This document shows, in pieces, positions 3,256 to 61,196 of a DNA stretch of 64,000 nucleotides. The DNA lies in NCBI GenBank assembly GCA_016210045.1, contig JACQUX010000009.1:65730-129729 (forward strand). The letters run 5' to 3'. This DNA is from Deltaproteobacteria bacterium (GTDB lineage Bacteria; UBA10199; GCA-002796325; JACPFF01). Numbering within the stretch: the stretch's first letter is position 1; the number at the start of each line of letters is the position of its first letter. The notes beneath the pieces are model-generated. The model was not told the origin of the DNA, did not search any database, and saw only the letters and a list, made by a program, of their open reading frames with translations. Both the position numbers and the translations under genes were made by a program.

Positions 3256-3318
3256 GCAGGGGGACAGGTACCGTCAACAGCCCATTTTATCGGCATCTGA
3301 CGGTACCTGTCCCCCTGC
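3256..3318. repeat. REP hairpin copy 3 (GCAGGGGGACAGGTACC...GGTACCTGTCCCCCTGC)
   Basis: Inverted repeat seen directly, about 110 bp upstream of the RAYT gene. Confidence 0.85.
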
Positions 3319-4131: not shown

Positions 4132-4186
4132 GGGGACAGGTACCGTCAAATGGCCGATTGATCGGCATTTGAAGGTACCTGTCCCC
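4132..4186. repeat. REP hairpin copy 2 (inside 88-nt unit 4120-4208)
   Basis: Near-identical to copy 1 (2 mismatches); between the RAYT stop and the smc stop. Confidence 0.85.
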
Positions 4187-38772: not shown

Positions 38773-38827
38773 GGGGACAGGTACCTTCGAAGGTGCGCCA
38801 AATGGGCATCGCATGGTACCTGTCCCC
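38773..38827. repeat. REP hairpin copy 4, inside the conserved leader of giant paralog A
   Basis: GGGGACAGGTACC...GGTACCTGTCCCC seen directly. Confidence 0.85.
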
Positions 38828-42337: not shown

Positions 42338-42394
42338 GGGGGACAGGTACCGTCAAATGTGCGCCAAATGGGCATCGCATGGTACCTGTCCCCC
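42338..42394. repeat. REP hairpin copy 5, inside the conserved leader of giant paralog B
   Basis: CCTAGGGGGACAGGTACC...GGTACCTGTCCCCCTAGG seen directly. Confidence 0.85.
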
Positions 42395-42468: not shown

Positions 42469-45400
42469 ATGCGACGCGTCGGTTCACATGGTTTGGGAGT
42501 GCATTCGCGTGTGGGAGCGCGTCCGGGCGCGGTGCGGCATGCGGATGCGGTGTATGACCACGCGCTGCGGACTGGCGGCACGGTCGCCGATGCGTGGCGC
42601 GCAGTGCGGGAGGGGCAGCATCGGATCTGCTTCGTCACTGCGGCGGGGGAGGACCCCGGGGCGGAGGCCGCTGCGCTGGCCTCTGCGGGCAGGGTCTCGG
42701 CGCCCCTCACGTGGTCGGAGTCGCTCGGCGCAACGGGGATTGGCAATGCACTGATCCAGCTCGCCGCGCGTGAACCCGATGCGGCGCAACGGCCGGTACG
42801 GCTCACGTTGCGACCGAATCCCGGCGACGTAGTGCCGGCATTTTTCCAAGCCGTGACGACGAGCGCCAAACTCGGTGACACGCGCGGGGTGTGGCAAGCG
42901 GTCGTGGAGCTGTACGATCATCAGCGTGCATTAGTGGTTCGCTACGGTCCGGCCGTTGCGGATCAACCGCGCCGCTTTGAATTCCCGCTGACCGCGACGA
43001 CGCAAGTGGCGAAGGCCTTGCGCGACTTGGTGCGCAATCGGGTGGTGCCGCTCGGCGCCGCATACGGCGCGGAACGGGTCGAGATCCATTTGGCAGTGAC
43101 GCTCGACGCGTTGCGCGAACATTCGCGGAAACAATTGACAACTGCGGCGACCGAGGCGCTCGAACGATGTCGCGCTGCCGGATGGCGCGAGGTCGTGATC
43201 CGGACGCTGCAGGAAGTCGTCGCGGCGTTACAACAGGGTGTCGTGGTTGCGAACACGGGACGTGCGCCGCATCCGAGCGGCACGGCCGTTGGGCAGGTCG
43301 ACGCTCCGGCGTCGATGCATGCGATAGTCGCGTTGATGAATCGAGCAGAGCTCGATCCCTGCTCCCTCCCGCTCCTGCCGCGTTGGGCTGTGGCACTGCC
43401 CATGGAGGGCTTCGCCCCGCCGCTGCCGGTGGAGACTCGCATCCCACGAGGCCCTTCACTGACGGCAACGGATGTGGCGCGCGAGTTGTTATCGGCCACG
43501 CCAGCCGGGGAGGGATGGACGGCTGCGCTGCTCCAGTCGACACTGCAGCAGCAGGCGCGGGATCGGCGTCGTGTCTATGCGCTGCTGCGGCCCTTCGCCG
43601 TGCCTCCGTTGCAGTTACTGGCCACGGTGGAGAGCGATGCCTCGTTCTGGTTGCTGGCGACGGACGGGATGTATCTGCGACATGTCGATGCGGCCGGACA
43701 GTTACGAGGCTATCAATATTGCACCGACGCCGACCGGGCCGCGCTCGTCGTGGAGGAATTATTGGCGATGGCTGCAGCGCCGGAATTTGAGTGTTTGCGA
43801 CAGACCCCGTTCGAATTGCAAATTGCGACCCGCGGCGTCCCCGCCGATCGGCACCTACAGCAGTGGGCGCAGTCTGTGGCCGCGTGGCTCCGCGACGCGG
43901 GCTACGAGCACGTCATCATCACGGCAGAACGAGGCCCGATTTTGGCCGCGACCGATATGCGGTTCGCAGAGGCCGCGACCGATGAGCCCGCCCTCTTGGC
44001 ATCGCCGCCGACCGATGCCGTGGAACTCGTGATGCCATCGGCCGCTGCCGCCGTGCGCGAGGCATGGGACGCGCTCCCGACGCGTCTGCCGCCGGCCGGG
44101 GCGTGCGTGATCGACGGTAGTGCGGATACCGCAGCCATGGTCTCGTTTTGGCTATTCGTACACGGGCTTTGGAGCGCCGCGAATCCGCGCCGTGGAGACG
44201 TGTTCTTGCGAGTCAACGGCCGCATCGTGGCGCACGCATTGTTCGATACGGCGAGCGGCGCGCCGTTGGGGCTGGAGATCGACGGCGCTGCCGTCACGGT
44301 AGCACAACTTCGTACGGTGTTGATCACTGACGAGGAGTTAGAGGGCGGGAAATCCCGATTGATCTTTGCCCCGCTTTTTGCGCCGGTCGAGATTCGCTAT
44401 CGCACGCCGACGCTTCCGGCCGGTGTGGCAGCCCTCTTCCCGTTGTTGGAGGAGAGCTATCATGACATGGGGTTTGCGGCGCTCGTCTTTTCCACGCCGC
44501 TGCGCCAATTCGAATTCGGCACCGCGGCCAGTATCGGACGATGGACGCATTGGCTGACCACAATGGCGGCGGCCTTCGATATCCCACTCCAACCCAACGA
44601 AGCGCGCAGCGTGGCCGAATATTTTTTGTGGCCGTTTGGCATCAAGCCGCTACTCCCGGCCGTCGCAACCATGCTCGGCGCGGATCGGGGTCGGATTTCT
44701 CGAAATGCGGAAGGCTATGGCACTCCACTGCCCGGCAGCGTCGTGGAGAGCTGCCGGCGGGCATTGGCGGAGCTGCGGCTGCTCCAAGTCGCGGCGCGGA
44801 GGCAAATTCGCGTCGTGTCGCTGGGTGGCACGGACTTGCCCGGATGGGTCGCGCAGCAAATAAAAACTGCGGAGGCGTTCGATGCCGCGCTCATGACGGC
44901 TCCTGACGACCCACGCAAATTGCCGTTTCTGCTGCTCTGGACGTTGGGCTTGATCCCCGATTCCCGATTTAGTCGACTCAGCCCGTTATTGCAAACGGTC
45001 TGGGATGCTGTGGTCAAGGGCATGGCTGATCCACGGTCGTATCTCCGCCTCTTTACCTTGATTTGGATGGTGAACACGGGAAGCGGGAAGGCAAAGGCCA
45101 AAGGTCGAAGACGGCTCGACCTGCCCGAGGCCGGACGCGTCGAGGTCATTCGCTTGCAACTGATCGCACTGGTGTTGGAGCTGGCGGACCGCGCCGTGGC
45201 CCCGGAGATCATCCGAGGACTGTATCAATCGATTCATCTGTTGCCGGTGCCGCTCGAGCTGGATAGTACGGCACCTCGTTATCCGCTCGCGTCCTCCCAG
45301 CACCCGTATGGAGAGCTCTTTACCACGCTGCAGCAAATGCTGCCGCGACTCGAACTCGCTGCGCAAGTCGCAGCGACCGTTGACACCGAGACCTTGTTGG

Positions 45401-47556
45401 CCGAGACTGATCAGCCCGCGTTGCCGGTCACGACGGCGTTGTCACTGCTTCCTACGATGGCTGCGCAGTTGTTGCACGCAGGTCTGGCGACGCCGGTCGA
45501 TGTCGGCGTCAATCGGACGCCGCTGAGCGATCGGGCCTGGCGCGCGACGGCTGCGCGCGTGCAACAGCGCTTGCGGGTCTTGGTTCCACCGACGGGCAAC
45601 GGCGCGGTCGTTACGCTGCCGTGTGCCTCGCGACAATTGTTCGCCGTGCTGGACGGACTCGATGTTTCGTACCCGCTCCTGTTGCAGATGCCAGGTGCGA
45701 TGTCGCTCCATCGTGCGGTCGATCCGGCCGGGCGGGTCAGCGGTCTCGAGTTCGTCTGCGCACTGGACGCCATCGGCATCGTGGCTCGCATGTTACTCGA
45801 ACACGCCGATATGGCGGTGCAAACGGGAGTGGCCCTGCGCGGCGTTCCAATCACGCTGACGCTGAGCACGACCCGCACGCGCCTGTCCCGTGCGCTGCAG
45901 CGGCGCATGGAAGCGGGACTGCGGCAATTACGGGACTTAGGCTTCCCGCATGTCGTCGTGCGGACCAGGGACGGCAATGTGCTTGCGGCCACGGATGCGT
46001 TGCCGGCGCCGGATGCCGTAGATGCAGAGCCGGCGGCCCATGCCCCGCCCGCCGAGCTGATTGGGATCGCGGCGGAAGGGCGCGCAGTGATTGCCGGACG
46101 TACTATGGTCACGACGTCGTTGGAACCGATCGAGGCCTGGCGCCGCGGGGACTGCGAGGCGGTGTTGTTGGACTGTACGACGGAACATGGGGCCCTCAGC
46201 GTACTCGAAGATCTGTTTGGCCAATACGAGTACCACTCCGAGCCGGTCGGTACCCCGCGCGGCGACGCCTTTATTCGCGTGGCGGGCCAGATTGTGGCCC
46301 ATGTGTCCGTGGATCCGCAACGGCGGGCGGTGCTGCGTGTGTGGTTAAATGGTGCCGTGATCGACGCGACGCGGTTGGTGTGGTGGGTTTTGCCACCCGC
46401 TGAGCAAGACAACGTGGGCGGCACAAGCCGCGGAGAAAAAATATATGCCGCCTATCCCGTGGAGATCCACATTCCGACATTGCAATTGCCGTCGCTCGTC
46501 GCAGAGGCGCTCCCTGCGTTCGAACAAGAATTTCGCGACCGACTGATTCCTGGGATCGTATTACGCACGCCGCTGGAAGAATTTGCGTTTGGGCATGCGG
46601 CCACGTTGGCCCGCTGGGCCTCGATATTCGTGGCCACGGCGGAGCCGCTGCAGATGGAATTTGACGGGGCTCTCACTCGAGACCTGTGCGTCGCGGATTG
46701 GCTGGCGCTCTACGGTGTTGGGGTATCGGGTTCTGGAGAGCTGCCATCGGCCGGGACCGATCGAGAGACGCTCCTGTATCGCCGCCACGAGCGGGGCTAT
46801 GCCCTCCCGCGGCCGGAGTTGGTCACCGATCCGCTGATAGCTTGGATTTGGGCCGAGAGTCTGCAGGGGTGGCTGCAGCGGATCGGGACGCCGGTGACGA
46901 CGGCGTCATTAGTCGATCTCGCAAGGCTGGGCGGTATCCTGACGGCCGCACAGGGGCGCAGGCGTGAAACGCCGACGCCCGAGACCGTGCGGCGCGAGCT
47001 CCCGGCGCCGCAAGCGGGCCCGGTGCCGCCACTCGGGCTGCTGCTCACGCAGGCCGGAATCGAACGGCTGCCCGCCCCGGACCCCGACCTCTTCCTGGCC
47101 GTCTGGGACGCGATGCGCGTGGGGCACCTCGACCAGCGCACGTGGGCTGCACAGTTCGTGGTCGAAGACCTCCAACAACTCACGTTCTCCGAGGCCGCAC
47201 GGCAGACCGCGCTGCGGATGCGGCTGCTCTGCTTTGTCGTGGAACATGACCAGCTGGACGAGCCGCCAGCGGAACTGCTGCGCCGTCTGTATGGCGCGAT
47301 CGCCACGCTCCCGCTCCCGGTCCGCGTGGAGGCGGGTACGATGCGTCGCCCGATGACAGACCCCGAGCATCCGTACTACGCCCCGGTCCATGCGATGCGC
47401 ACGCTGATCGCGGCATGGCGTGCGGAAGCGGCACAAGCCGCACCCGCCGCTGTGTCTCCACCGGCCGTACGCCTGTCATTGGGTGGTCTGTTGATCTGGT
47501 CGGACCTGGATCTGGAAGCGGAAGTGGTGGAGCGATTACTGCGGGAACGGGAGTGA
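42469..47556 (+). CDS. Giant modular protein paralog B (1695 aa) with internal module duplications
   Basis: Shares its N-terminus with paralog A; contains three LRDAGY-x-VVVRT-x-G-x-VLAA modules and two RQFEFG/EEFAFG modules. Confidence 0.6.
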   Translation: MRRVGSHGLGVHSRVGARPGAVRHADAVYDHALRTGGTVADAWRAVREGQHRICFVTAAGEDPGAEAAALASAGRVSAPLTWSESLGATGIGNALIQLAAREPDAAQRPVRLTLRPNPGDVVPAFFQAVTTSAKLGDTRGVWQAVVELYDHQRALVVRYGPAVADQPRRFEFPLTATTQVAKALRDLVRNRVVPLGAAYGAERVEIHLAVTLDALREHSRKQLTTAATEALERCRAAGWREVVIRTLQEVVAALQQGVVVANTGRAPHPSGTAVGQVDAPASMHAIVALMNRAELDPCSLPLLPRWAVALPMEGFAPPLPVETRIPRGPSLTATDVARELLSATPAGEGWTAALLQSTLQQQARDRRRVYALLRPFAVPPLQLLATVESDASFWLLATDGMYLRHVDAAGQLRGYQYCTDADRAALVVEELLAMAAAPEFECLRQTPFELQIATRGVPADRHLQQWAQSVAAWLRDAGYEHVIITAERGPILAATDMRFAEAATDEPALLASPPTDAVELVMPSAAAAVREAWDALPTRLPPAGACVIDGSADTAAMVSFWLFVHGLWSAANPRRGDVFLRVNGRIVAHALFDTASGAPLGLEIDGAAVTVAQLRTVLITDEELEGGKSRLIFAPLFAPVEIRYRTPTLPAGVAALFPLLEESYHDMGFAALVFSTPLRQFEFGTAASIGRWTHWLTTMAAAFDIPLQPNEARSVAEYFLWPFGIKPLLPAVATMLGADRGRISRNAEGYGTPLPGSVVESCRRALAELRLLQVAARRQIRVVSLGGTDLPGWVAQQIKTAEAFDAALMTAPDDPRKLPFLLLWTLGLIPDSRFSRLSPLLQTVWDAVVKGMADPRSYLRLFTLIWMVNTGSGKAKAKGRRRLDLPEAGRVEVIRLQLIALVLELADRAVAPEIIRGLYQSIHLLPVPLELDSTAPRYPLASSQHPYGELFTTLQQMLPRLELAAQVAATVDTETLLAETDQPALPVTTALSLLPTMAAQLLHAGLATPVDVGVNRTPLSDRAWRATAARVQQRLRVLVPPTGNGAVVTLPCASRQLFAVLDGLDVSYPLLLQMPGAMSLHRAVDPAGRVSGLEFVCALDAIGIVARMLLEHADMAVQTGVALRGVPITLTLSTTRTRLSRALQRRMEAGLRQLRDLGFPHVVVRTRDGNVLAATDALPAPDAVDAEPAAHAPPAELIGIAAEGRAVIAGRTMVTTSLEPIEAWRRGDCEAVLLDCTTEHGALSVLEDLFGQYEYHSEPVGTPRGDAFIRVAGQIVAHVSVDPQRRAVLRVWLNGAVIDATRLVWWVLPPAEQDNVGGTSRGEKIYAAYPVEIHIPTLQLPSLVAEALPAFEQEFRDRLIPGIVLRTPLEEFAFGHAATLARWASIFVATAEPLQMEFDGALTRDLCVADWLALYGVGVSGSGELPSAGTDRETLLYRRHERGYALPRPELVTDPLIAWIWAESLQGWLQRIGTPVTTASLVDLARLGGILTAAQGRRRETPTPETVRRELPAPQAGPVPPLGLLLTQAGIERLPAPDPDLFLAVWDAMRVGHLDQRTWAAQFVVEDLQQLTFSEAARQTALRMRLLCFVVEHDQLDEPPAELLRRLYGAIATLPLPVRVEAGTMRRPMTDPEHPYYAPVHAMRTLIAAWRAEAAQAAPAAVSPPAVRLSLGGLLIWSDLDLEAEVVERLLRERE

Positions 47557-47648
47557 GTGATGATTGCTGACCGACATTGCCAAAACGACATCCGATGTCA
47601 AATTGGGAAAGGCTTGTCTAAAATAACATCCGATGCTATTTTGAGCAT

Positions 47649-48958: not shown

Positions 48959-51900
48959 ATGACGCGTCCTATTGGAAAAGGGCCTGGTCTGGGTGGTGCA
49001 CTGCCGCCCGGACTCACGCGCGGTCTGGCGCGTACGCCGACACCGTTGCGCGGGCCGCTCGGGAGTGGGATTGGCGGACGCCAACCGCTTGGGGCTGGGA
49101 TTGGGACCGGATCCGGTCGAGGCGAGCGTTCGCCGTTGTCCTCGCACGGCGACGGGCCATTCGGGATGCCAAGCCGCGCATATCGTTTTTTGCTTCCTGG
49201 CGCTCACCATTTTTCCGCACATCATCTCGCCATCGAGTGCGCTAGCGGGCGGAAAGGTCCGCCGGATGGATCCGTCGGGAGTGGGAGTGGAAGCAGTAGT
49301 GATGCGCCGCAGGTCACGCGCGAGCCATCGCTTCGTCATGGTAAAGCGATCAAGGCCGGTGGGATTGTCGCCGCGCTCAATGCGTTGGCCGATCAAGATG
49401 CGAGTCGGACACGTGCCGTCATCGTGCGGCTCAAACCGCAGGCCTTGAGCGGACCTGAACAATGGGCCGTGTTGTTGGCGGAACTCGGCAGGGCTGTCTG
49501 GCACGGGACGGTGACGATTCTCGACGCCGAGAATCATCCGATCGTGCGCCGCGCGGCCCGTCCCGATGCGCGGCCGGCGCCATTCATTTTCGCATTGCAT
49601 CGCGAGAAAACGCACGCGGCACAATGGGAACGCCTGTGTGCGATATTGATGGACCCCGCAGTGGTGCGCGCCGTCGGCGCGACGCCGATCGTATTGCAAT
49701 ATGGATTTGTTCTGGAGTCGGCGGATGACGCCATGCATGCCCATGCCCGCGATGCAGTGGGGACGCTGGTTTCGAGTGGTTACGTGCAGGTGACGGCGGC
49801 GAATGCGGAAGGGGCCACGCTGCTGCGAGTTCAGCCGTGGATGATCTATGCACAACCGGTGCCTCTCGCGGTTGCTGCACCCGAACGCCATCGTTATCCG
49901 GAGGCGGTGGGGCGAGTGTTGCGGAGCGAGGAAGATGACGGCTCCGCGGAGTCGCCGCTTCCGGATCAACCCCATCGGGTCTTGGATGAACGCGGCGCGA
50001 GGGAGTACGAGGTGGCACAAGTGCGCGCGCTGTTGGAGCCAATTGATCCCGCCGTTCCAGTCGAGCTGACGTGTCCGCGCTCTTCACAACATCTCTATCC
50101 GCCCGCGCCTTTCTTAGGGATGCGTCGCCAGGCTGCCGTGACACTGGATGCGCGGGAATCGCCAAACGGATTTGGTGTGCATCGGATGGTATTGCACTTC
50201 GATCCGGCGCACGAGGGTGAGTTAGTGCGTGCCGACGTGACAGTGGCATTTGATGAATTACTCGAACAATCGGAACATCTAAAATTATCTCACTTAGATC
50301 CCAGTGCACGTACTTATCATTCCCTGGCCGTCGGCGCGCCGCCGGTGCCGGTCGTGATTAAGATTGTGAGTCGGCCGTCGTTGTCGTTGCAAGCGGTGTG
50401 GTCTGCGGCGCAGCTCTATTGCCGGCGGGCGCGGCAAGCGCGGATGTCGGATGTGACGATCGTCTACGGCGATCGCGTCATTACCGGCACCATCCCGGGG
50501 CGTATCTGGCGCAGCGGGGTGCCTCAACTGCCGGCCGTGGCGGCGGCTGCACCGTCGACTGATTCGGCGGATGTTGCCGCAACGGCGGCTGCCGAACACG
50601 TGCCGCCGGTCGCGGCGAGCGAAGGCCTGTCCGCAGATGCCGATGCGGAGCCACAATCCGGGGACGGCGCGTCGTTACTTCCGCCGCCTCCGCCGCCCCT
50701 ACCGCCCGACGATGGTGGACCGGCGTCGCAACCGGAACCGCCGCGCGGTACTCCCGAAGTGCCTCGAGCCGTGCCGGTGACCACGGCCATTCCGCAACCT
50801 CCGCTGCGCACGGCGGTCATTGCGCAGCGCGGGATGCCGGATCCGATCACGATGCCGGAAGCCGTCCAAGAGGGCGGATTGGCGGCAGTCGTCGTGTGGC
50901 TGCAAGTGCAGACGGTGCGGCCGCAAGGTGTCATCACGATGTGGGCGCGGCGGACGGACGCCAACCTAGCACTACTGGCGGCCACTGCGGATCGCGGGAT
51001 GCCGGTTACACTGATCGATCCGATCACAGCGGGCTATTTTCATCACGAACCGTCGATCGGATTCGACGTGGAAGTGAATCCGGATCGACTCGGCCATGTG
51101 GTGCGCGCGCTCTGCGCGGCTGCGGACGGAGACTTCGCTCCACTGCGTACGGATCCGCTGATGTTGACGTTGGCGCGGGTCGACGACCTGCCGGAGGCGG
51201 CGTTGCAACAATGGGTGACGCGTGCAGTCGCGCGGCTCCGCGACGCCGGATATGCCCAAGTGGTCGTGCGGACGGCGAGTGGCGCGGTGTTGGCGGCGAG
51301 TGATGCAATCACCGCAGTGATACCGGAGTCGAGTGACGATCCCTGGACTACCAACGGTGACGCTACAGATTCCACAACTCTGCAGACCATGATTGACGGA
51401 GATCTACGTAGTTCCCTCCCAGGCACGAGACTTATCCAATTCCACGGTACGACCGTGCCGGAGTGGTTGCGTGCCCGATTCGCCGCATACGAAACGGCGT
51501 TTGATGTGGCGGGATCCCAGAGGGGGCTGCTCATTGAAACCGATACGGAGCGCTACGAGTTTGGTTGTTCGGAACGGCTTCGACTCTGGACGTATCAGGT
51601 GCAGGCTGTGGCCCAACGGCACGGTCGGACCCTCACGAAAGCCGAAGCTGAACTGGTCGCCGAGGTCTTGTTGGCGCGCTATTGCATCGTTCCGCAATCG
51701 CCCGCCGCCGTCGCCGCAGCCAATCATTATCGCACCAGTCCGCTGGATGCCGCCGCGATGCAATCCTTTCGGGCGGAGGCCTTCCACTTTGCGACGCCGC
51801 ATGTAGTGATGGCGACCCCGGTAATCCTGCGCCTGACTGCCGATCTCGTGCCGGCCGTTGCGACGCAAGATGCAGCCGCAGAACCGGCACCACCAACGCC

Positions 51901-54900
51901 TGACACCGTGTTGCCACCGCCAGCGCCTACTGCTGATGATGCCACGGCCGCGTCCACCCCCAGTCACCAGCCACTAGTCACCAGCCACCCCTCCGCAGTC
52001 ACCAGCCCCCAGCCCCCAGTCACCCCTCCGCAGCCACTTCCGCTTGTGCAAACCCTTTGGGCCCGCATCGGCGCGACGGCACGGCCGGAACTTGCGTCGT
52101 TACTGGAACGCCTCTGGGTGATGGAACAGGCACGGCCCGGCGTGCCGTCGTGGGAGATCGCGGCCGACGGGGTGTTGACCGTGGCGCAAGCCGCCCAAGC
52201 GGTGCGCGTCAGCATCGCCGCAGCGACCGCGCACGATTGTGCGATGACCGATCCCGCGAGCCTGCGCTGGTTGCTCGATGATGTGATGCCGTCGCCGGAG
52301 ATGTTCGGCGATCCGGCGACCATGGGGATGGACCAGTGGCCGACGATATGTATTACGCCGGCGGATTTTCGCGATTTGGTTGAGGCGGCTGTTAGCGCGG
52401 TCAAGGCCGTGTTGGCGGCGCCGCCGCCGGCAGATGCAGACGCGGCGCCTGGTCCCACGGCCCCCGCGCCAGATCCAACCGCGGCCGCGTCGGCCCCAAG
52501 CGCCGCGGCCTCGTCGCACTCCCACGGTTTCCAGCGCCGCGCACTGGTCCGTTATCGTCTCGGTATATTGCGGACCATTCAGCCGCCGGTCGTCGACGCG
52601 TCCGTGTTGACGGCGCTCGAACGACTGCCTCCCGATATCGCGTTCAGTCTGCTGAGTCACAACGACGCCGCCATGATGGCCGGCTTCCTGCGCGACCAAC
52701 TTCCGCGTCCCGATCGGGACGGGGTCCCGCGCCTGGTCAAGCTGTTGTGGGCGTATTTAGGCTGTTACCAAACCGGCTATGCCGCCACGTTGGCAAAATG
52801 GTGGCGGACATTTGTGGCCGAGCAGATCGCACGCGATGCCACGCTGCAAGCCCGGCTGGAACAGCTCCGAACCTACGAGGCGGCCGATACGGTCAGCTTC
52901 AACGATCTCGATCCGGAATTGTTGCACGCTGCCGTGATGGTCGGCTTCACGGTGGCTGTGACCGCGGCGTTGCATCGCACCGGCGATACCAATCTGCTCC
53001 ATATTCAGACCGCGTTGGAATCGATTCGCGACGTGAACTCCGCCCGCACCTGGGAGTCCGTGGCGGGCTTGTCGTTCGATGCGGTGCTGGCATCCGTCTC
53101 CGCGCTGGAACCGCCCGAAGAAAGCGATCGCGAGGCGTTCATCACGCTCTCCGGCGATTGGCCGCAACCGTTCCTCGTGACCGACGCCGCGCAGACGGCC
53201 CAACAGCGCCTCACTGCCAATGCCCCACGGATCAAGGCGCTGGTCGAAGCGATGGTCGCGGGCCATCCGGTGTACCACGGCGATATTCGTGCGCTTGATA
53301 TCACGAAGCCGCCCGAGGAATCGGTGGCGCCGATCCAGCGGCGTTTCAAAACGAGTGATGGGCGACAAAAAATCGGGAATCGCCATTTGACGCTGGCCGC
53401 GCTGGCGGAAATCTACTGGGACTTGGTTACCGCGCCTGGCTGTCCCGGCGCGCATCTGCCGGAGCTGTTCGAGCCGACGCTCGCGGTGAAGCTCGATTGT
53501 CTCGTGGAACACCTCTTTGATCAGATCCGGTATGGCCGCACCCGCTTTACCCGGATGAGCCGCGCGGCCTTTGCGGCCAAGGCGAAGGAGTGGGACATTA
53601 ATCGACTCCTCCCGGTGTTGCGCGGCGACAGCAATGCCGTTGCCAAGTTGCTCGGGACCAAACTCTTCTCCGATCACTGGCGGATCCTCTCGCCATTGGA
53701 ACGCAAACGGTTCGTCGAAGGGTTTGCCCAGTTGCCGCTGGCCCAAGGCCCCGGGCCGACCGGCCGGCCAGCGCGCACGCGTGTGAGCCTGCACGAATTG
53801 GCGGAACAAGAGCGGGTCTTGATCGACTTCCTGCGCGCGCGGAACCTGCGTCTACAAGGACTTGGCGGCGAGGATATTTTTCATCTCTATGAAATTTACC
53901 GTTTCGTCACCCACGTCCGTTTCGGCCGCGACTATTCCACAGCGATGCACGAGCTCGCGTATCGATTAGGCGAACGACCCGACCCGAATCCGGATCCGGC
54001 CGCACGGATCACGGCGGAGACCGATCCGGTGCTGTTGGCCGTGTTGCGCCAGGCCTACAATTATTATCAGCGCCGGGAACAATTCGGTGCGCTGCCGGCG
54101 CGACTCCGGCCCGAGACGTTGAACTTGGCCCAATGGATCGGCGCGCAGTGGTTGACGGAGCGCAGTCCGGTCCCGACCGACGATCCGCAATTCCCGATCG
54201 ATCCGCATGTGAAATTCCTGCTCGACGGCGCTCGTCTTGGCAAGACGCGCCAAATGTTCGCCGCGTGGCAACAGCTCATCGCGCGGGGCGAGGTTGAGGC
54301 CGATGGCGCCGTCCTCTATGTGACGCGTTCCACGAACATGGACGAAGTCGCGAAGGAGTTGCAACTGATCTGCAACGACGGCCAGGCCCCGTCGGTCGGG
54401 ATGTTGCGCTGGGAAGAGGGACAGAAGGGCGTTGCGGTGACGGAAGTGGCCGGCAAACAAGTCCGGATCGTGCATTATCAGAATTTGTGGCGTCTCAATC
54501 CGTACGAATGGGAACGCGAGATCGCGAAGCGGCGGGCCCGAGCCGCGAAATTGCGTGCTTCCGTGGCGGATGCTGATCCGCGAGAGGCGAAGGGCGCACG
54601 TGCGTCGCAAGAGATTGCTGAACTCGATGCGGTGATCGAGAAATTGGAAGCGCAATTGCCGGCGCTGCGCACGCAGTGGGAGCAATTGCACGCCAATGTC
54701 GCGGTCACGATCGTCGATGAGGCCCAAGAGGCCGAAAATCCTTCCGAGGAGGTCAAACAAGCCAACGGGGTGCGCGATGCGATTGCGCATGTGCGGGGTC
54801 GGCGCGCGGAGGTTGGCAAGTCGCCGATGCGGCTCTGGTGGGCCACAGCGAGTCTCTATAATAGCGATCCGGGACATATCCAATCGTTGCTCGAAACGAG

Positions 54901-57900
54901 TTTCCCGACGCATGAGTTGTATCGGCACGGCGCGGCGTTCCGGGCCGCACATACGCACACGATGGATGGACTGCTGAAACTGCACAACGACCTGATGGGC
55001 CAGTTTTCGCTGCGTCGCACCGTGGAAGAGGTCTATGAAGTCGGCGAAGAAATTCCGGCGATTCGCGAAGTGCCGTATGCAGAGCTGGGACGGTACGAAC
55101 ATAGTCGCGAACAACTGCGCATTTATCGCGCGATCTATCTCCATTTCATGGAATGGGCGCGCGCCCGCAATGCGACGCTCCCGCCCGATAAACAGATCGA
55201 TCTCGAGCAAGTCAATCCGTTGCAGATCTTCCAATTGATGGAATGGACCACGCAACATCCTGCATTGGTCGGCGGCTCGGACGATTCGCCGATGATCGCC
55301 GAGGCGGTGCGGATCGCGCGCGAGAATGCCGCGGCAGGCCGTAAAACGGTGATCGTGTGCCAATACACCGCCGTCGTCGATCAATTCCTCGCGGCCTTCG
55401 CGGCCGCCGATGTCGGCGCCGAGCGGTTCGATGGGGCCGTCGAGGGCCTGACCGACCAACGCTATCGTTTCGCCGGACGGCGGCTGGTCGCAGATCCGGC
55501 CGGGGTTCGCGTGCGAAAAGTCTCCGTCAATTTGGACCGCTTCAATAGCGATCCCACCGTTCCGGTCCTCGTCGCCAACGTGAAGAGTATCCGCGCCGGA
55601 CTGCGGGTCAATGCCGACGATATTATATTGGCGACGGAACCGATCTCGGCCACGGAACGCTATCAATTGGTCCATCGCATCCAGAACTTGAACGCCTCGG
55701 GCGAGGCGAAGAAGGACGCCGTGCGGGTGATCACGATGGTCGGTGTACATCCGCCGCGCTTCCTGGACGACCTCGAGGATCCGGCGTTGATCGCGCTCTT
55801 TGAGGCCGGCTCGCTCGGCCAACTCATTCGGGCGTACGTCCAGGACAATCAGATCGTTTGGGAGTTGATCTTGAGTGGCGAAGTGAGTCCGGAGGGGATG
55901 GAACGCTTGTTACAGAAGAAAGTGATTGCCGGCGGCGTGTTGGATCCGCTGCGGCCACATTGGGGCGTCCGTTGGGGACGCCGCGATCCGGCGGTGGACG
56001 GCGCAGCGTCCCGCAAAACGGGGAAGCACACGGCGCATCTGTCACCGGCGCTCGCGCCCCTGTTGGACATGTGCGAGAACGGCGCCCTTACGCCGCGCGA
56101 CAAAGAACGGGCGCGGCATCAAATCGCGCGGTTGGCGCGTGGATTCCAGAGTGCCGGCGTCGCGCCGCATCGTTTAGTCACCGTGATTCAGAAACTGGCG
56201 CGGCGCGGAGAACGCGGTTTTTCCTGGGCCGATCTGGATGTCGTGGTCGATCTGCTCGAAGCGAGCGATCTCTCGACGCGCGATGTCGTCTTGGCCCAGC
56301 TCCCTCGGGCCATGGAGGCGATCGCCGAAGCGGGGCTCCGCTTTGCCGAATTGGCGGAGCAGCTCCAACCTGAAGCCAGTCCGCTCGCGTTTCTCACGAT
56401 CCCGGCGCTGCTGGCGGGCCGCTTATGGCACACCGACGCGGCCGGTGCGATCGTCTATTTCCGCTTCCTGTTGCGGACGCTGGCCGCCGTGCCGGACATC
56501 GCCGCGCGTGATGCATTGGCGCAGCGTCTCTTCGTGGCGTTGGCCCGATTCAGTAGCCGACCGGAAGACTTGTACGACGACACGCTGATGCAGTTGTTTG
56601 CGCGCCCGCGACGGGAGCCGCCGCTCGGACTGTCCGAGCAAGTGGCCGCATTGGAACAGTTGGCGGTGCTGCAGGTCGTCGATCGAGAGAACTTGCCCAT
56701 GTTGCTTGCGGAAGGGAGCGGCACACTGGGCAATGTGGACGACACGCTGGAGAGTCTGCAAGCGGGCGGTGCCGGGACGTGGCAACCGCTGCTCCATGCG
56801 CTGCGTGTTGCGTCACCAGGCCCCAGACTGCTCGCGGCACTCGATGCCCTCGGCCGGCGCCCCGGACAGATTGAGGCCGTCGGCACGATGTTCCAGCGGC
56901 TCGAAGGGGCACAAGCGGGAGCCTATCGGCAACTCCTGTTGGCGACGCTGACTGAGAATCTTCCCACGTATCGTGCCGCAGCGCCCGGATTCTTGGCGGA
57001 CGCGAAATCGCGCCGGGAATTTTGGGAACCGTGGGGACAGGAACGGACCACGGCCATGCCCGACCGCGTGGTGGGTGCCCAGGAAATGGTGACGCTGCTG
57101 CAACGCGAATACGAACGGCTGATGCATCATAAGTGGGGCTTAAGTCTCGAGCTGTTTGCCGCGTTGGAAGAACCATGGGTGGCCGAGGCATGGACACAAT
57201 ATCGGGACACTGAAGATCGCGAAGCGCGCGCGGCGCAGCACCACGCGGTGCAAGCGGATGTGGCACGCCTCAGCGGGCTCCGTTCCCAAGTCGAGGCGTT
57301 TTTCCAACCTCGTCGCCGCCGCCGCGCGAGCGACCCGGAAGTGCCCGCGATTGAGCTCTCCGCGGACGACCTGGCCTGTTTAGCAAGATATAGTGTGACA
57401 CCGCCCGACCTGGTGAATGCCGAAGCCGTGCTGGTCTACGGTCAACAACTGACGACTTGGGCCGGCCGCTTGCAGCGCGTCGCCGACTGGATGGAATTGA
57501 GCCGCACGTTGCATCAGATTTTCCACGACGATGCGGACGCCGATCCCGCGGCCGCGTTGGCGGCCGTGCAGCGGCAGATTTGGGCATTGGAAGACCGTCG
57601 CGAAGATGGACAGGGTTCACTACTCGCGGATCGCGTGCTCGATCAGTTGCATCAGCTCCGCCGCCAACTGCAGGCGTTGATCCAGTGCGCGGCGCAGGAA
57701 AAAGCGTCGACCGCATTTGCCGACGTCTCAGTGACCGACACCGATGACATAGCCGTGCTCCATCTCTTCACGCATAGCAATGCAGACTTGGTCCCGCGCT
57801 TCCGTCGCGGTGCGCGCGAGCATCTCGACACGTTGCTCGACGTGGCCGGCAGCCGCAATCGGCGCTGGGTCGTGGTCCGCAGCCACGGTCGACCAATAGC

Positions 57901-58303
57901 CGTTGCCGTGGCGTCGGTGGAAAAGAATCAGCCTGGACGCCCGCATATCCACCTCGAATGGGCCTGGTTTGCTGGCGGCTATGACTTCCGCAACGAAATG
58001 CTGGCGCATCTCCAAGCAAAAATCGCCGATCGCGAGAACGTTGCGGCACAGGGCGGAACTCCGCAGCCGATGCAATACGGACGCGAGGGGCCGGGGAAAA
58101 AGACGCCGTTGCTGACGCAGCCGCTACCGTTTTCGCCGTTGGAGGTGAGCCGGATCCCGAGCCAAGATCGTGTCACGCTGTCGTCGACCGGCAGCACGGT
58201 CGGCGACAACACCGTCGAGGCCTTCTCGCGAATCAATCCTCAAGGGACGGAAAAACACGACGCCGTGATCCTGCGTAGAGTTGTCTCCGCGTCCGGTTCT
58301 TGA
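48959..58303 (+). CDS. Giant modular protein C (3114 aa) containing a complete SNF2-family ATPase core (about 54200-55700) plus modules shared with paralogs A and B; start uncertain
   Basis: Motif I FLLDGARLGKTRQ; II TIVDEAQEAENPSE; III WWATASLYNSDPGHIQSLL; IV KTVIVCQYTAVVDQF...ERFDGAV; V/VI VLVANVKSIRAGLRVNADDIILATEPISATERYQLVHRIQN; shared QQWVTRAVARLRDAGYAQVVVRTASGAVLAASD and RYEFG modules. Confidence 0.65.
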   Translation: MTRPIGKGPGLGGALPPGLTRGLARTPTPLRGPLGSGIGGRQPLGAGIGTGSGRGERSPLSSHGDGPFGMPSRAYRFLLPGAHHFSAHHLAIECASGRKGPPDGSVGSGSGSSSDAPQVTREPSLRHGKAIKAGGIVAALNALADQDASRTRAVIVRLKPQALSGPEQWAVLLAELGRAVWHGTVTILDAENHPIVRRAARPDARPAPFIFALHREKTHAAQWERLCAILMDPAVVRAVGATPIVLQYGFVLESADDAMHAHARDAVGTLVSSGYVQVTAANAEGATLLRVQPWMIYAQPVPLAVAAPERHRYPEAVGRVLRSEEDDGSAESPLPDQPHRVLDERGAREYEVAQVRALLEPIDPAVPVELTCPRSSQHLYPPAPFLGMRRQAAVTLDARESPNGFGVHRMVLHFDPAHEGELVRADVTVAFDELLEQSEHLKLSHLDPSARTYHSLAVGAPPVPVVIKIVSRPSLSLQAVWSAAQLYCRRARQARMSDVTIVYGDRVITGTIPGRIWRSGVPQLPAVAAAAPSTDSADVAATAAAEHVPPVAASEGLSADADAEPQSGDGASLLPPPPPPLPPDDGGPASQPEPPRGTPEVPRAVPVTTAIPQPPLRTAVIAQRGMPDPITMPEAVQEGGLAAVVVWLQVQTVRPQGVITMWARRTDANLALLAATADRGMPVTLIDPITAGYFHHEPSIGFDVEVNPDRLGHVVRALCAAADGDFAPLRTDPLMLTLARVDDLPEAALQQWVTRAVARLRDAGYAQVVVRTASGAVLAASDAITAVIPESSDDPWTTNGDATDSTTLQTMIDGDLRSSLPGTRLIQFHGTTVPEWLRARFAAYETAFDVAGSQRGLLIETDTERYEFGCSERLRLWTYQVQAVAQRHGRTLTKAEAELVAEVLLARYCIVPQSPAAVAAANHYRTSPLDAAAMQSFRAEAFHFATPHVVMATPVILRLTADLVPAVATQDAAAEPAPPTPDTVLPPPAPTADDATAASTPSHQPLVTSHPSAVTSPQPPVTPPQPLPLVQTLWARIGATARPELASLLERLWVMEQARPGVPSWEIAADGVLTVAQAAQAVRVSIAAATAHDCAMTDPASLRWLLDDVMPSPEMFGDPATMGMDQWPTICITPADFRDLVEAAVSAVKAVLAAPPPADADAAPGPTAPAPDPTAAASAPSAAASSHSHGFQRRALVRYRLGILRTIQPPVVDASVLTALERLPPDIAFSLLSHNDAAMMAGFLRDQLPRPDRDGVPRLVKLLWAYLGCYQTGYAATLAKWWRTFVAEQIARDATLQARLEQLRTYEAADTVSFNDLDPELLHAAVMVGFTVAVTAALHRTGDTNLLHIQTALESIRDVNSARTWESVAGLSFDAVLASVSALEPPEESDREAFITLSGDWPQPFLVTDAAQTAQQRLTANAPRIKALVEAMVAGHPVYHGDIRALDITKPPEESVAPIQRRFKTSDGRQKIGNRHLTLAALAEIYWDLVTAPGCPGAHLPELFEPTLAVKLDCLVEHLFDQIRYGRTRFTRMSRAAFAAKAKEWDINRLLPVLRGDSNAVAKLLGTKLFSDHWRILSPLERKRFVEGFAQLPLAQGPGPTGRPARTRVSLHELAEQERVLIDFLRARNLRLQGLGGEDIFHLYEIYRFVTHVRFGRDYSTAMHELAYRLGERPDPNPDPAARITAETDPVLLAVLRQAYNYYQRREQFGALPARLRPETLNLAQWIGAQWLTERSPVPTDDPQFPIDPHVKFLLDGARLGKTRQMFAAWQQLIARGEVEADGAVLYVTRSTNMDEVAKELQLICNDGQAPSVGMLRWEEGQKGVAVTEVAGKQVRIVHYQNLWRLNPYEWEREIAKRRARAAKLRASVADADPREAKGARASQEIAELDAVIEKLEAQLPALRTQWEQLHANVAVTIVDEAQEAENPSEEVKQANGVRDAIAHVRGRRAEVGKSPMRLWWATASLYNSDPGHIQSLLETSFPTHELYRHGAAFRAAHTHTMDGLLKLHNDLMGQFSLRRTVEEVYEVGEEIPAIREVPYAELGRYEHSREQLRIYRAIYLHFMEWARARNATLPPDKQIDLEQVNPLQIFQLMEWTTQHPALVGGSDDSPMIAEAVRIARENAAAGRKTVIVCQYTAVVDQFLAAFAAADVGAERFDGAVEGLTDQRYRFAGRRLVADPAGVRVRKVSVNLDRFNSDPTVPVLVANVKSIRAGLRVNADDIILATEPISATERYQLVHRIQNLNASGEAKKDAVRVITMVGVHPPRFLDDLEDPALIALFEAGSLGQLIRAYVQDNQIVWELILSGEVSPEGMERLLQKKVIAGGVLDPLRPHWGVRWGRRDPAVDGAASRKTGKHTAHLSPALAPLLDMCENGALTPRDKERARHQIARLARGFQSAGVAPHRLVTVIQKLARRGERGFSWADLDVVVDLLEASDLSTRDVVLAQLPRAMEAIAEAGLRFAELAEQLQPEASPLAFLTIPALLAGRLWHTDAAGAIVYFRFLLRTLAAVPDIAARDALAQRLFVALARFSSRPEDLYDDTLMQLFARPRREPPLGLSEQVAALEQLAVLQVVDRENLPMLLAEGSGTLGNVDDTLESLQAGGAGTWQPLLHALRVASPGPRLLAALDALGRRPGQIEAVGTMFQRLEGAQAGAYRQLLLATLTENLPTYRAAAPGFLADAKSRREFWEPWGQERTTAMPDRVVGAQEMVTLLQREYERLMHHKWGLSLELFAALEEPWVAEAWTQYRDTEDREARAAQHHAVQADVARLSGLRSQVEAFFQPRRRRRASDPEVPAIELSADDLACLARYSVTPPDLVNAEAVLVYGQQLTTWAGRLQRVADWMELSRTLHQIFHDDADADPAAALAAVQRQIWALEDRREDGQGSLLADRVLDQLHQLRRQLQALIQCAAQEKASTAFADVSVTDTDDIAVLHLFTHSNADLVPRFRRGAREHLDTLLDVAGSRNRRWVVVRSHGRPIAVAVASVEKNQPGRPHIHLEWAWFAGGYDFRNEMLAHLQAKIADRENVAAQGGTPQPMQYGREGPGKKTPLLTQPLPFSPLEVSRIPSQDRVTLSSTGSTVGDNTVEAFSRINPQGTEKHDAVILRRVVSASGS

Positions 58304-58319
58304 TAGGGCGTGTGTCATC

Positions 58320-58988
58320 ATGCAATCGCTCTCCATTTCCATCATCTTGTTGCTTACGTTGTGCGGCATACGCATCGCCCACGCCGTTTCCTGCCCCGGC
58401 GCGTGTGGAGTGCTGCAGCGGCAGCTCGGAGCGACGGCCGTCGTGACGCCGGAACACGTGCGTCCATTGCGGGAGTGGTTGGGGCGCGCGGTGGTGCAGG
58501 CGCACGGCGCGCAACAATTACGAGCGAGCGGGACATTGCTGGCGCGGGGCTATGCGCAGTTGATGGCGGGCGCGGTGGGCGAGGGCATCCAAACATTATT
58601 GCGCGCGGCGGAACCCCACGCCTCGCATGCGGCGCTGGATGGCGCGTATCTGGGTGTCTTAATCTTGTGGCCGGAATTGACGCCGACCCAGCAAGTGGAT
58701 TGGGCGCGCGACCTGGCCGGCCGCTACGCGTTAGTGGCCGTGGGGGAGCGGCCGCAGCCGAACGGCGCGCCCCCGATACGTCTCCGCCCGCTGGATCTGC
58801 AGCGCCTGATTTGGCTCTACACCTCCGCCCAAGAACCGCGCGCGGTCCAACACTTTACTCAGCTGGGGCAGCGCTGGTTCCCGGAGGATCCCGCCTTTGC
58901 CCGGCAGGCGACGCCGTCGCCGCGTGTCGTGGCCGAACGTCCTACACCGCAAGCAACCGCACCCCACCGCGACCGGCGGGATTGGTAG
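58320..58988 (+). CDS. Hypothetical secreted protein (start set at MQSLSISIILLLTLCGIRIAHA)
   Basis: Signal peptide; last gene of the + strand block. Confidence 0.45.
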   Translation: MQSLSISIILLLTLCGIRIAHAVSCPGACGVLQRQLGATAVVTPEHVRPLREWLGRAVVQAHGAQQLRASGTLLARGYAQLMAGAVGEGIQTLLRAAEPHASHAALDGAYLGVLILWPELTPTQQVDWARDLAGRYALVAVGERPQPNGAPPIRLRPLDLQRLIWLYTSAQEPRAVQHFTQLGQRWFPEDPAFARQATPSPRVVAERPTPQATAPHRDRRDW

Positions 58989-59007
58989 GCCCGGAGGCGT
59001 GCTGCGC

Positions 59008-59760
59008 TCAATGTTTTGGACGTGTCACATCCGCTTCATACGGATGATGCAGCACCAGCGGACGATGGATTTGGCGGACGCGAATGTTGAGCATTTCAAC
59101 GCCGAGAGAAAACGCCATCGCGAAATAGATATAGCCCTTGCCGACGTGTTGCCCCATCCCTTCCGCGACGAGCATCACGCCGATCAGCAGCAAAAAGCTC
59201 AAGCCCAACATTTTCAAACTCGGGTGTCGTTCCACGAAACGGCTGATGGCCCCGGAGAACGCCAACATCAGCAACACGGCGACGACCATCGCGACGACCA
59301 TGACCCAGAGTTGCCGCGCCATCCCGACCGCAGTGATCACGGAGTCGAGTGAAAACACGAGGTCGAGCAAAATCAGTTGTACGATGATCAACCAAAACGC
59401 CGCGTGGCGGGATGACGTGCGGTCGTCCGGATGCGCGCGCTCCATCTTGTCGTAGATTTCGTGCGTGGCCTTCGCCACCAGGAACAGGCCGCCGCCGAGC
59501 AGGATCAAATGGCGTCCTGAGAACGCGTGGTCGAACAGCACAAAGAGCGGCGCGGTCAGTCCCATCACCCACGAAATGGCCGCCAATAATCCGAGGCGCA
59601 TCAATAACGCCAATGACAGCCCGATCAGCCGCGCGCGTGCTTGCTCTGCGAGCGGCAGTTTGCCGACCAATATGGAGAGGAAGACGATGTTGTCGATCCC
59701 GAGGACGACTTCCATCCCGGTCAGGGCCAGGAGCGCAATCCAGGTTTCTGAGGTTGGCAT
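59008..59760 (-). CDS. TerC-family integral membrane protein
   Basis: N-terminal ALTGMEVVLGIDNIVFLSILV; 7 TM segments. Confidence 0.8.
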   Translation of the reverse strand: MPTSETWIALLALTGMEVVLGIDNIVFLSILVGKLPLAEQARARLIGLSLALLMRLGLLAAISWVMGLTAPLFVLFDHAFSGRHLILLGGGLFLVAKATHEIYDKMERAHPDDRTSSRHAAFWLIIVQLILLDLVFSLDSVITAVGMARQLWVMVVAMVVAVLLMLAFSGAISRFVERHPSLKMLGLSFLLLIGVMLVAEGMGQHVGKGYIYFAMAFSLGVEMLNIRVRQIHRPLVLHHPYEADVTRPKH

Positions 59761-61133: not shown

Positions 61134-61196
61134 GCAGGGGGACAGGTACCGTCGGATATAGGAAATATGCGGATTTGTCGGTACCTGTCCCCCTGC
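61134..61196. repeat. REP hairpin copy 6, immediately upstream of birA
   Basis: GCAGGGGGACAGGTACC...GGTACCTGTCCCCCTGC seen directly. Confidence 0.85.

Follow-up and report, generated by a model that had tools for sequence, protein, structure and literature searches.

Much less is known about SNF2 proteins of bacteria than about the eukaryotic remodelers, and the well-studied bacterial examples are limited to RapA and a handful of defence helicases. Here, we describe an SNF2-family ATPase core in a protein of 3114 residues, referred to below as the giant, which is encoded in a 64,000-nucleotide stretch of DNA (the window) from a Deltaproteobacteria bacterium. Set against the eukaryotic Swi2/Snf2 remodelers (Ino80, ISWI/SNF2h, CHD4, CSB/ERCC6, and ALC1), the giant's core shares 14-21% sequence identity, carries E-N instead of K-N in motif II, has an asparagine (N2243) in place of the second motif VI arginine and a hairpin of ~60 residues before motif II, and is flanked by wholly different domains. 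The alignment of the giant's family also lacks the motif Va tryptophan that typifies canonical remodelers. Moreover, because the giant is bacterial, a nucleosome substrate is excluded, unlike for the eukaryotic remodelers. Among bacterial systems, RapA/HepA, the RNA-polymerase-associated SNF2 ATPase, resembles the giant in being chromosomal and in having large non-catalytic flanks, though a scan of the giant with NCBIfam, a library assumed to include a RapA model, gave no RapA match, and its only match was a chance one of 13 bits to an SMC-related coiled coil. ZorD of the Zorya system (PDB 8qy7 and 8qyc) has unrelated flanking domains and about a third of the giant's length, and the giant has neither a PADLOC match to ZorD nor ZorA/B/C-like neighbours. 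Finally, SsoRad54 (SSO1653) and Rad54 (1z63 and 1z3i) are free-standing cores of ~500-650 residues, whereas the core of the giant lies inside a conserved unit of ~1650 residues.

With a probability of roughly 0.75, we consider residues ~1716-2272 of the giant to be a genuine, highly divergent Swi2/Snf2 ATPase, situated in the ~1650-residue unit of an undescribed family, with a motor that is likely dsDNA-acting and attenuated. The gene and its core are located as follows.

48959..58303, + strand: gene of the giant, 3114 aa, genuinely coding as judged from the open reading frame, database identity, an ortholog, and dN/dS
54104..55774, + strand: SNF2-family two-lobe ATPase core, aa 1716-2272

The product is identical to HY696_02475 from an NCBI metagenome-assembled genome (MAG) of a Deltaproteobacteria bacterium, where it is annotated as a hypothetical protein. 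Its ortholog P0002 (3139 aa) shows 64% identity overall and 79% over the SNF2 core. In the comparison of these two, dN/dS is 0.09-0.37 in all 150-aa windows and 0.09-0.25 over the core in the + frame, so that few parts of the gene are constrained as strongly as the core. A long open reading frame on the opposite strand (53966-55822) was rejected as a shadow ORF, typical in GC-rich DNA.

Sequence and structural evidence for the core

The Pfam searches advised in the preliminary description came out negative, and yet SNF2 membership could be shown otherwise. SNF2-rel_dom (PF00176) gave no match at E up to 10, and Helicase_C (PF00271) none on lobe 2, whether the query was the full-length protein, the core alone, or the core without its hairpin. 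Likewise, NCBIfam and PADLOC did not detect the SNF2 domain of the giant, a PDB sequence search with its single sequence returned no match, and P0003, the nearest relative beyond the giant/P0002 pair, had no Pfam match. Whole SNF2 motor families can thus escape standard annotation, with Pfam, NCBIfam, and PADLOC all blind and the database record reading "hypothetical". As there was no direct Pfam match, intermediate homologs and structure were needed to place the core. In PHROG, residues 1753-2241 matched phrog_62 ("DNA helicase") with an E-value of 5.4e-16. A profile of the window protein and P0002, run exhaustively with HMMER against 1.84e9 representatives, produced 48 matches, nearly all of them giant proteins, and was linked (E 4.8e-33) to a protein in this library bearing Pfam SNF2-rel_dom. 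When distant matches were scanned directly, the gathering score was passed by nine of nine for SNF2-rel_dom and by seven of nine for Helicase_C, and P0049 and P0050 have SNF2-rel_dom in their precomputed annotation. Moreover, hhalign aligned the window protein, P0002, and P0003 with the other 23 sequences over 448 columns (probability 100%, E 2.4e-67), and the family profile found ISW1 (1e-43), SsoRad54 (9e-37), and ZorD (1.8e-32), and also SRCAP, CHD1L, and INO80, among the PDB sequences.

Structure modelling, likewise proposed at the outset, yielded an SNF2 fold. The AlphaFold2 (AF2) model of the core from 26 sequences (pLDDT 88.4, pTM 0.84), which owes its confidence to an alignment made up mostly of canonical-looking relatives, has a secondary structure of two beta-alpha-beta lobes, and with two sequences only the model was poor (pLDDT 50). 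The best 50 Foldseek matches were SNF2 ATPases without exception (E 1e-18 to 2e-14), structural alignments with Ino80, SNF2h, and CHD4 covered 380-408 residues, and RapA, which the preliminary description had suggested for comparison, was not among the top structural matches. PHROG, the HMMER-linked homologs, hhalign, and the model therefore agree, and the initial assignment of an SNF2-family ATPase core was correct.

Within the core, the family alignment and the AF2 model place motifs Q, I, Ia, II, III, IV, V, and VI in canonical order over two RecA-like lobes (nt 54131-55687).

54131..54133, + strand: Q-motif glutamine Q1725 (LNLAQWIGAQWL); Q in 39/42 family sequences
54227..54247, + strand: motif I / Walker A GARLGKT, aa 1757-1763, with K1762; K in 43/43
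aa 1784-1791: motif Ia AVLYVTRS
54716..54739, + strand: motif II / Walker B DEAQEAEN, aa 1920-1927; D1920 and E1921 invariant, N1927 in 39/43
54836..54865, + strand: motif III WWATASLYNS, aa 1960-1969; aligns with family W-L-S/T-A-T/S-P-Y
55004..55033, + strand: SNF2-specific block FSLRRTVEEV, aa 2016-2025, between motifs III and IV; aligns with family LRRxKxxV and ISW1 LRRIKSDV
55343..55369, + strand: motif IV strand KTVIVCQYT, aa 2129-2137; from the family alignment and model strand E415-419
55586..55609, + strand: motif V SIRAGLRV, aa 2210-2217; aligns with family SGGVGLxL
55664..55687, + strand: motif VI QLVHRIQN, aa 2236-2243; Q2236 and R2240 kept, second arginine replaced by N2243

Every motif falls inside the span first given for the core (54200-55700) or at most 70 nt away from it. 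K1762, D1920, E1921, and R2240 are invariant across the family alignment, in line with the early remark that the Walker A lysine and the Walker B Asp-Glu are intact, and Q1725, N1927, and Q2236 are nearly so. Between motifs III and IV, FSLRRTVEEV and IPAIREVPYAELGRYEHSREQLRIYRAIY align with family blocks and with ISW1, and the SNF2-specific region is thus present. At motif VI, the family consensus aligns with QAMDRAHRIGQ of ISW1, the glutamine occurs in 46 of 47 members, and the first arginine (R2240) in all 47. While the motifs are all recognisable and ordered as was initially described, motif VI retains one of its two arginines.

Motif II, the hairpin, and the second motif VI arginine

The preliminary description regarded DEAQEAEN as a variant motif II. 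In the family alignment, however, the residue before the motif II asparagine is D in 20/43, E in 14/43, A in 5/43, and K in 1/43 sequences, and with D or E in 34/43 the E-N pair of the giant is ordinary. Another feature precedes this motif.

54500..54688, + strand: clade-specific helical hairpin, aa 1848-1870 and 1877-1910, immediately ahead of the motif II strand

Spacing between the Walker A lysine and the Walker B aspartate is 158 residues in the giant versus 93-107 in most relatives, which amounts to ~60 extra residues, and the insertion shows up in hhalign as a gap. Its two helices (H133-155 and H162-195) are modelled with pLDDT 82-97, the heptad a/d positions are 86-90% hydrophobic, and the region is 56% identical to P0002 with no indels. 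The ~60-residue coiled-coil insertion noted earlier is therefore real, but it is modelled as an antiparallel hairpin broken at ADADPRE and not as one continuous coil. Among family members, it is confined to the giant and its two closest relatives, P0002 and P0003. The hairpin, which precedes the Walker B strand, would probably serve as a docking or regulatory arm.

At the second motif VI arginine, the 47 family members have R in 33, G in 11, and N, S, and L in one each, these last three being the window protein (N2243) and its two nearest relatives. The hairpin and the loss of this arginine are derived features common to the window protein, P0002, and P0003. The giant accordingly lacks a catalytic set with both motif VI arginines. 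N2243 corresponds in position to R1162 of CHD4, an arginine finger that contacts AMP-PNP and whose R1162Q mutant has 19% of the ATPase activity left and undetectable remodelling (PMC7338049, PMC5974244). The earlier view that ATPase activity is plausible is tempered by this alignment. Loss of the second arginine may make for a slow ATPase, or an arginine may be supplied from elsewhere.

Architecture of the family

We found this SNF2 family of giants solely in metagenomes and MAGs (search of 1.84e9 representatives). Members are 1300-5400 aa long, and their conserved unit of ~1650 aa is made up, in this order, of a pre-domain, then the SNF2 core, then a tail of ~770 aa with a conserved C-terminal domain, as it is in the giant. 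The position of the core 1700 residues into the protein, considered unusual at first, is therefore the normal layout among family members. P0003 (1857 aa), for instance, aligns with residues 1466-3100 of the giant.

53510..53986, + strand: conserved pre-core domain, aa ~1518-1676; directly upstream of the core in >25 family members (local jackhmmer)
55775..58108, + strand: conserved post-core tail, aa 2273-3050; common to the family
57656..58033, + strand: C-terminal domain, the best-conserved part of the tail, aa ~2900-3025; matched by 34 family members

Neither the pre-core domain nor the C-terminal domain of the tail found a match among PDB sequences, and Pfam recognised no HSA, chromo, SANT, or other accessory domain in the giant. 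The C-terminal domain is possibly GNAT-like, given a Pfam Acetyltransf_6 match (5e-4) in one of 22 members.

The window protein itself belongs to the giant SNF2 + DUF488 proteins, a family of uncharacterised proteins from uncultured bacteria, exemplified by MBL8024375.1 from Elusimicrobiota (3945 aa), that is undescribed and is defined in the present analysis. The pre-domain, core, tail, and C-terminal domain are common to both. These other giants have a C-terminal DUF488 or a DUF488 gene immediately downstream, whereas neither is detectable in the giant and P0002; the other giants also mostly keep the second motif VI arginine (G in 11) and lack the hairpin. A local DUF488 HMM made from four family members detected none in the giant, P0002, or P0003, nor in six-frame translations of the DNA that follows the giant and P0002 (E above 0.7), and the Pfam scan of the giant gave no DUF488. 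What emerges is a conserved giant architecture in which several domains are without a recognisable fold and a link to DUF488 recurs.

Proposed function and the neighbouring genes

The core comprises two RecA-like lobes, and the helical elements peculiar to SNF2 enzymes lie between its motifs III and IV. By analogy with all characterised SNF2 enzymes, the motor would most likely grip dsDNA and use ATP to drive translocation or the displacement of bound proteins, and the accessory regions may target it. The accepted view of how SNF2 enzymes function is unchanged by such a protein.

Other readings of the core were weighed against this one. That it belongs to another SF2 family (DEAD/DEAH, RecG/Mfd-like, or a Type I/III restriction motor), or that its motifs arose by chance in a GC-rich ORF, draws on the lack of direct SNF2-rel_dom and Helicase_C matches, but in fold the core is closer to the SNF2 ATPases than to the rest of the SF2 helicases, and we disfavour this as extremely improbable. 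The PHROG and HMMER matches and the dN/dS over the core also speak against a chance pattern. Somewhat less remote, albeit still quite unlikely, is an anti-phage defence helicase akin to ZorD, DrmD, or the BREX/Dpd SNF2 proteins, which would cooperate with the AAA_14/DUF4143 ATPase next to it and with the upstream paralogs, which evolve fast. PADLOC matches that ATPase gene to PDC-S01, but it has no match for the giant or its 902-aa and 1695-aa neighbours, and the AAA_14 gene is missing at the same position on the contig of P0002. Pfam and NCBIfam, moreover, reveal no nuclease, methylase, or other effector domain, tblastn against phage and plasmid collections gave no matches, and the window, like the loci of several relatives, is a neighbourhood of housekeeping genes (SMC, TrpRS, ClpB, TrpA/B, NusB, and NADH dehydrogenase).

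More serious, though we still think it unlikely, is a degenerate motor or nucleotide switch, in which the SNF2 fold and ATP binding are kept without processive translocation and the protein acts as an ATP-gated clamp or scaffold. That N, S, and L vary at the arginine-finger position of the window protein and its two closest relatives means that no particular residue is selected there, the glycine in 11 other members suggests repeated loss, and the missing motif Va tryptophan and the fall of CHD4 R1162Q to 19% activity (PMC5974244) point the same way. On the other hand, a mutant with 19% activity remains an ATPase, the Walker A lysine, Walker B Asp-Glu, Q motif, and motif VI glutamine and first arginine are kept throughout or nearly so, and the core is under some of the strongest constraint in the gene. 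Natural loss of the arginine finger, with the other catalytic residues under strong purifying selection, offers a direct test of how far SNF2 enzymes depend on it.

Returning to the attenuated SNF2 motor that we prefer, a broader proposal can be put forward tentatively, being possible but doubtful. Here, a deeply divergent and undescribed giant SNF2 family, with a new pre-domain, the core, a new ~770-aa tail, a possibly GNAT-like end, and frequent coupling to DUF488, would have lost the arginine finger at least twice, and the motor would be completed in trans, either by its tail or by partner proteins like the co-located paralogous module proteins, or would work as a slow ATP-gated DNA clamp. 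If true, each of these would amount to a way of regulating SNF2 enzymes that has so far not been described for bacteria. The module proteins in question are encoded upstream.

49295..51733, + strand: N, X, and Y modules of the giant, aa 113-283, 690-800, and 815-925; paralogous to two upstream genes (BLASTP E 9e-9, 1e-7, and 6e-5; local jackhmmer mapping)
42469..47556, + strand: 1695-aa paralogous module protein, N-X-Y-X-Y, upstream of the giant; adjacency conserved
38905..41613, + strand: second paralog, 902 aa, N-X-Y; leader DNA duplicated

In the giant, the ~1650-aa SNF2 unit has been fused to ~1450 aa of N-terminal modules paralogous to these two genes. An ortholog of the 1695-aa protein lies directly upstream of P0002 on contig L001, with an identity of only 36%, and the 902-aa paralog is 47% identical to the N-terminal 500 residues of the 1695-aa protein.

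Identity of the giant protein's core

All of the motifs under study fall within a single open reading frame, the product of which is identical to an NCBI hypothetical protein of a Deltaproteobacteria MAG:

48959-58303, + strand, gene of the giant protein, 3114 aa

In a 5.8-billion-protein collection, the only full-length relative was the 3139-aa ortholog P0002 (64% identity), encoded on contig L001. Codon comparison with this ortholog gave dN/dS values of 0.09-0.37 in every 150-aa window of the giant, which establishes the + frame as a real gene over its whole length. A 618-aa ORF on the - strand (53966-55822), antisense to the SNF2 core, was rejected as a GC-rich shadow ORF, with the + frame there having a dN/dS of ~0.1-0.25. 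The window itself is chromosomal DNA of an uncultured host, and its other genes include SMC, tryptophanyl-tRNA synthetase, alpha-2-macroglobulin, and TerC.

The motifs listed in the preliminary description were all recovered at the places given for them, with the Q-motif glutamine (Q1725) lying slightly upstream of where the core had been taken to start.

Conserved motifs of the SNF2 core (residues of the giant protein)
1757-1763, motif I, GARLGKT
1920-1927, motif II, DEAQEAEN
1960-1969, motif III, WWATASLYNS
2016-2025, SNF2 block, FSLRRTVEEV
2129-2137, motif IV, KTVIVCQYT
2210-2217, motif V, SIRAGLRV
2236-2243, motif VI, QLVHRIQN

The direct comparison with the Pfam SNF2-rel_dom and Helicase_C models, which had been proposed as the check, returned no match for the giant, its excised region, either half, or the core minus its insertion. 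As the core lacks a Pfam match even with the insertion deleted, the failure reflects overall divergence and not the insertion alone. Moreover, NCBIfam and PADLOC searches with the whole giant gave nothing relevant, and phmmer with the core as a single sequence found no match among PDB sequences. Despite this, the SNF2 assignment is supported by three independent kinds of evidence. To begin with, the PHROG profile phrog_62 ('DNA helicase') matches residues 1753-2241 (E 5.4e-16). Then, a HMMER profile built from the giant and P0002 only, and run exhaustively against 1.84 billion cluster representatives, retrieved 48 proteins, almost every one of them 1300-5400 aa long. Among nine distant relatives scanned (P0004, P0005, P0007, P0009, P0012, P0013, P0017, P0019, and P0040), SNF2-rel_dom scored above the Pfam gathering score in all nine and Helicase_C in seven, with the Pfam-matched stretches overlapping the region aligned to the giant; two others (P0049 and P0050) carry precomputed SNF2-rel_dom matches. 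P0003, the closest relative beyond the orthologous pair, has no Pfam match. Lastly, hhalign joined a profile of the giant, P0002, and P0003 to the other 23 sequences with 100% probability (E 2.4e-67, 448 columns), and the resulting 26-sequence family profile retrieved ISW1, SRCAP, CHD1L, INO80, SsoRad54, and ZorD from the PDB sequences at 1e-43 to 1e-32. Both the HMMER and hhalign links are independent of the AlphaFold2 (AF2) model, which relies on an alignment with many relatives of more canonical sequence, a two-sequence alignment having given a poor model (pLDDT 50). We consider it probable, at roughly three chances in four, that the giant is a true SNF2-family motor and belongs to an undescribed family of giants. 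What had been observed in the sequence was confirmed, and its interpretation holds in part, the SNF2 core being upheld and the 'variant' EN, the intactness of the core, and its unusual burial not.

The ATP site and the hairpin insertion

In the family alignment, K1762, D1920, E1921, and R2240 are invariant, and Q1725 and Q2236 nearly so. The Walker A lysine and Walker B DE had been described as intact, which is correct, but where motif VI (QxxxRxxR) would have its second arginine the giant has Asn2243, P0002 has Ser, and P0003 has Leu. Of 47 family members, 33 have Arg in this column and 11 have Gly, and the family consensus aligns it to the 'HR' arginine in QAMDRAHRIGQ of ISW1. We take the counterpart of Asn2243 to be R1162 of CHD4, placed on the CHD4 sequence (DWNPH...SRAHRIGQ) with W1148 and H1151 as anchors. 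In CHD4, W1148 and H1151 are positioned at and beside motif Va, and R1162 is the arginine finger that touches AMP-PNP (PMC7338049). The R1162Q substitution leaves 19% of the ATPase activity and makes sliding undetectable (PMC5974244). By analogy with these CHD4 data, the giant's core likely binds ATP, but its hydrolysis at full speed is doubtful unless another residue compensates.

The glutamate before the motif II asparagine had been seen as a peculiarity of the giant; it is instead a trait of the whole family. Here, among 43 aligned members, the residue preceding this asparagine is D in 20, E in 14, A in 5, and K in a single one, and the asparagine itself is kept in 39, the family form being DEaQxx(D/E)N, often (19 of 43) with P next.

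As for the reported coiled-coil insertion of about 60 residues, the extra length is real, the motif I lysine and motif II aspartate being 158 aa apart in the giant and P0002 and 174 in P0003 versus 93-107 in most other members, and hhalign places the additional residues as one gap opposite residues ~1846-1905. The AF2 model, however, divides the insertion into two helices (residues 1848-1870 and 1877-1910) with a break at ADADPRE, and so it is modelled as an antiparallel hairpin emerging immediately before the Walker B strand. Its heptad a/d positions are 86-90% hydrophobic. Within the core, its sequence is conserved least (56% identity to the ortholog), but its length is fixed, and it is common only to the giant and its two closest relatives. 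With its new accessory domains, a hairpin found in just these three, and a missing arginine finger, the giant represents a divergent SNF2 subfamily.

Architecture and the wider family

That an SNF2 core lies so deep in a bacterial protein had been regarded as odd, and this is explained by the family architecture together with an N-terminal fusion. The 1857-aa P0003 aligns to residues 1466-3100 of the giant; identity is 42% over the core and 33% over the tail. Directly upstream of the core, family members have in common a domain of ~150 aa (residues ~1518-1676 in the giant), and downstream of it a further ~770 aa, which single-sequence phmmer at full-library scaling also finds (P0004, 3.6e-13; P0016, 4.4e-13). 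The best-conserved piece of this tail, with the consensus ...NCFN...LGSRNK.L.VVR..G.I.AVAM.KV...EDG.PVLFLER.LYR.GYDF..EML, is as follows:

57656-58033, + strand, C-terminal domain of the tail (residues ~2900-3025), conserved in 34 family members

Neither the pre-core nor the C-terminal domain gave a significant match in profile searches against the PDB and Pfam. Among 22 C-terminal domains, one matched the GNAT family Acetyltransf_6 (E 5e-4), a single weak match that hints tentatively at a GNAT relationship. The first ~1450 residues of the giant hold modules N (113-283), X (690-800), and Y (815-925). These modules recur in the two genes immediately upstream, and the giant is thus an A-type module protein fused to an SNF2 unit typical of the family.

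Every family member looked up is of metagenome or MAG origin (Elusimicrobiota and 'Deltaproteobacteria') and is named 'hypothetical protein', 'superfamily II DNA or RNA helicase', or 'DUF488 family protein'. In at least five members (L004, L005, L007, L010, and L011), DUF488, which has no known function, forms a C-terminal fusion, and in a sixth it is a separate gene immediately downstream that overlaps the SNF2 stop codon (L009, 9659-10204), with several proteins that have faint HTH matches encoded after it. A local DUF488 HMM found nothing in the giant, P0002, or the DNA just downstream of either gene, nor within the P0003 protein. Literature searches in an incomplete library, in which absence is no more than absence of evidence, returned nothing on an SNF2-DUF488 link or on giant bacterial SNF2 proteins. 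A GTDB genome scan with A1-derived patterns matched 88 stretches, none of them relatives. An origin as a mobile-element or 'polyvalent protein' was dropped after tblastn with the core found no match in phage and plasmid collections.

Genomic neighbourhood and proposed mechanism

The genes flanking the giant are these:

38905-41613, 902-aa paralog upstream of the giant, layout N-X-Y
42469-47556, 1695-aa paralog upstream of the giant, layout N-X-Y-X-Y
47649-48866, AAA_14/DUF4143 ATPase, between the 1695-aa gene and the giant
58281-58988, frame of the conserved gene after the giant, likely start ATG 58320

The two paralogs are in tandem; their N-termini are almost identical, their leader DNA is duplicated, and neither has a Pfam domain. 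A counterpart of the 1695-aa gene lies directly upstream of P0002 and is only 36% identical, and this protein thus evolves much faster than the giant. The downstream gene, with a signal-peptide-like N-terminus, shares 61% identity across 181 aa with a 223-aa gene after P0002; a 245-aa ORF at 58310-59047, lacking a counterpart on L001, was discarded as a shadow ORF.

The analysis shows the fold and family of the core, the conservation of its ATP-site residues, the purifying selection on the gene, and its architecture. If the giant works as all characterised SNF2 enzymes do, its two lobes would close around ATP and move along duplex DNA in the minor groove, producing force by which bound proteins are displaced or repositioned. 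Judging from the sequence, the motor may be slow or may need an arginine from another source, the hairpin could serve as a docking or regulatory arm, and the N-X-Y modules might mediate the giant's association with its paralogous neighbours or with a shared ligand. The motor is about equally likely to be an active translocase or a switch.

Alternatively, the giant might have a role in defence. The adjacent AAA_14/DUF4143 ATPase matches the PADLOC candidate defence family PDC-S01 (4.8e-49). The ATPase gene is missing at the matching position on L001 and is probably a recent insertion; the AT-rich DNA upstream of it contains ACATCCGATG twice (at 47588 and 47626). Family loci are mostly housekeeping in content (ClpB with TrpA/B; HU; NusB with riboflavin synthase; NADH dehydrogenase), and an HU-type DNA-binding protein gene is found directly upstream of the 5384-aa P0049 on two independent contigs (L007, 2924-3220; L008, 411-707). 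One family member has a Type ISP restriction enzyme, a PIF1 helicase, and a transposase as neighbours. A defence role is conceivable but poorly supported and improbable.

Unrelated to the SNF2 finding, the window has two genes with domains common in conflict systems, these being an ATPase_2, DUF234, and MarR-like gene (12646-14055) and a Schlafen AlbA_2 and HATPase_c_4 gene (23275-24618). The window also has six copies of a 55-nt palindromic element, GGGGACAGGTACC-N29-GGTACCTGTCCCC (863-917, 3260-3314, 4132-4186, 38773-38827, 42339-42393, and 61138-61192), its 13-nt arm having 13 matches versus 0.8 expected. The sites are outside large ORFs, two of them just upstream of the 902-aa and 1695-aa genes, and the element looks like a REP-type repeat of the host genome.
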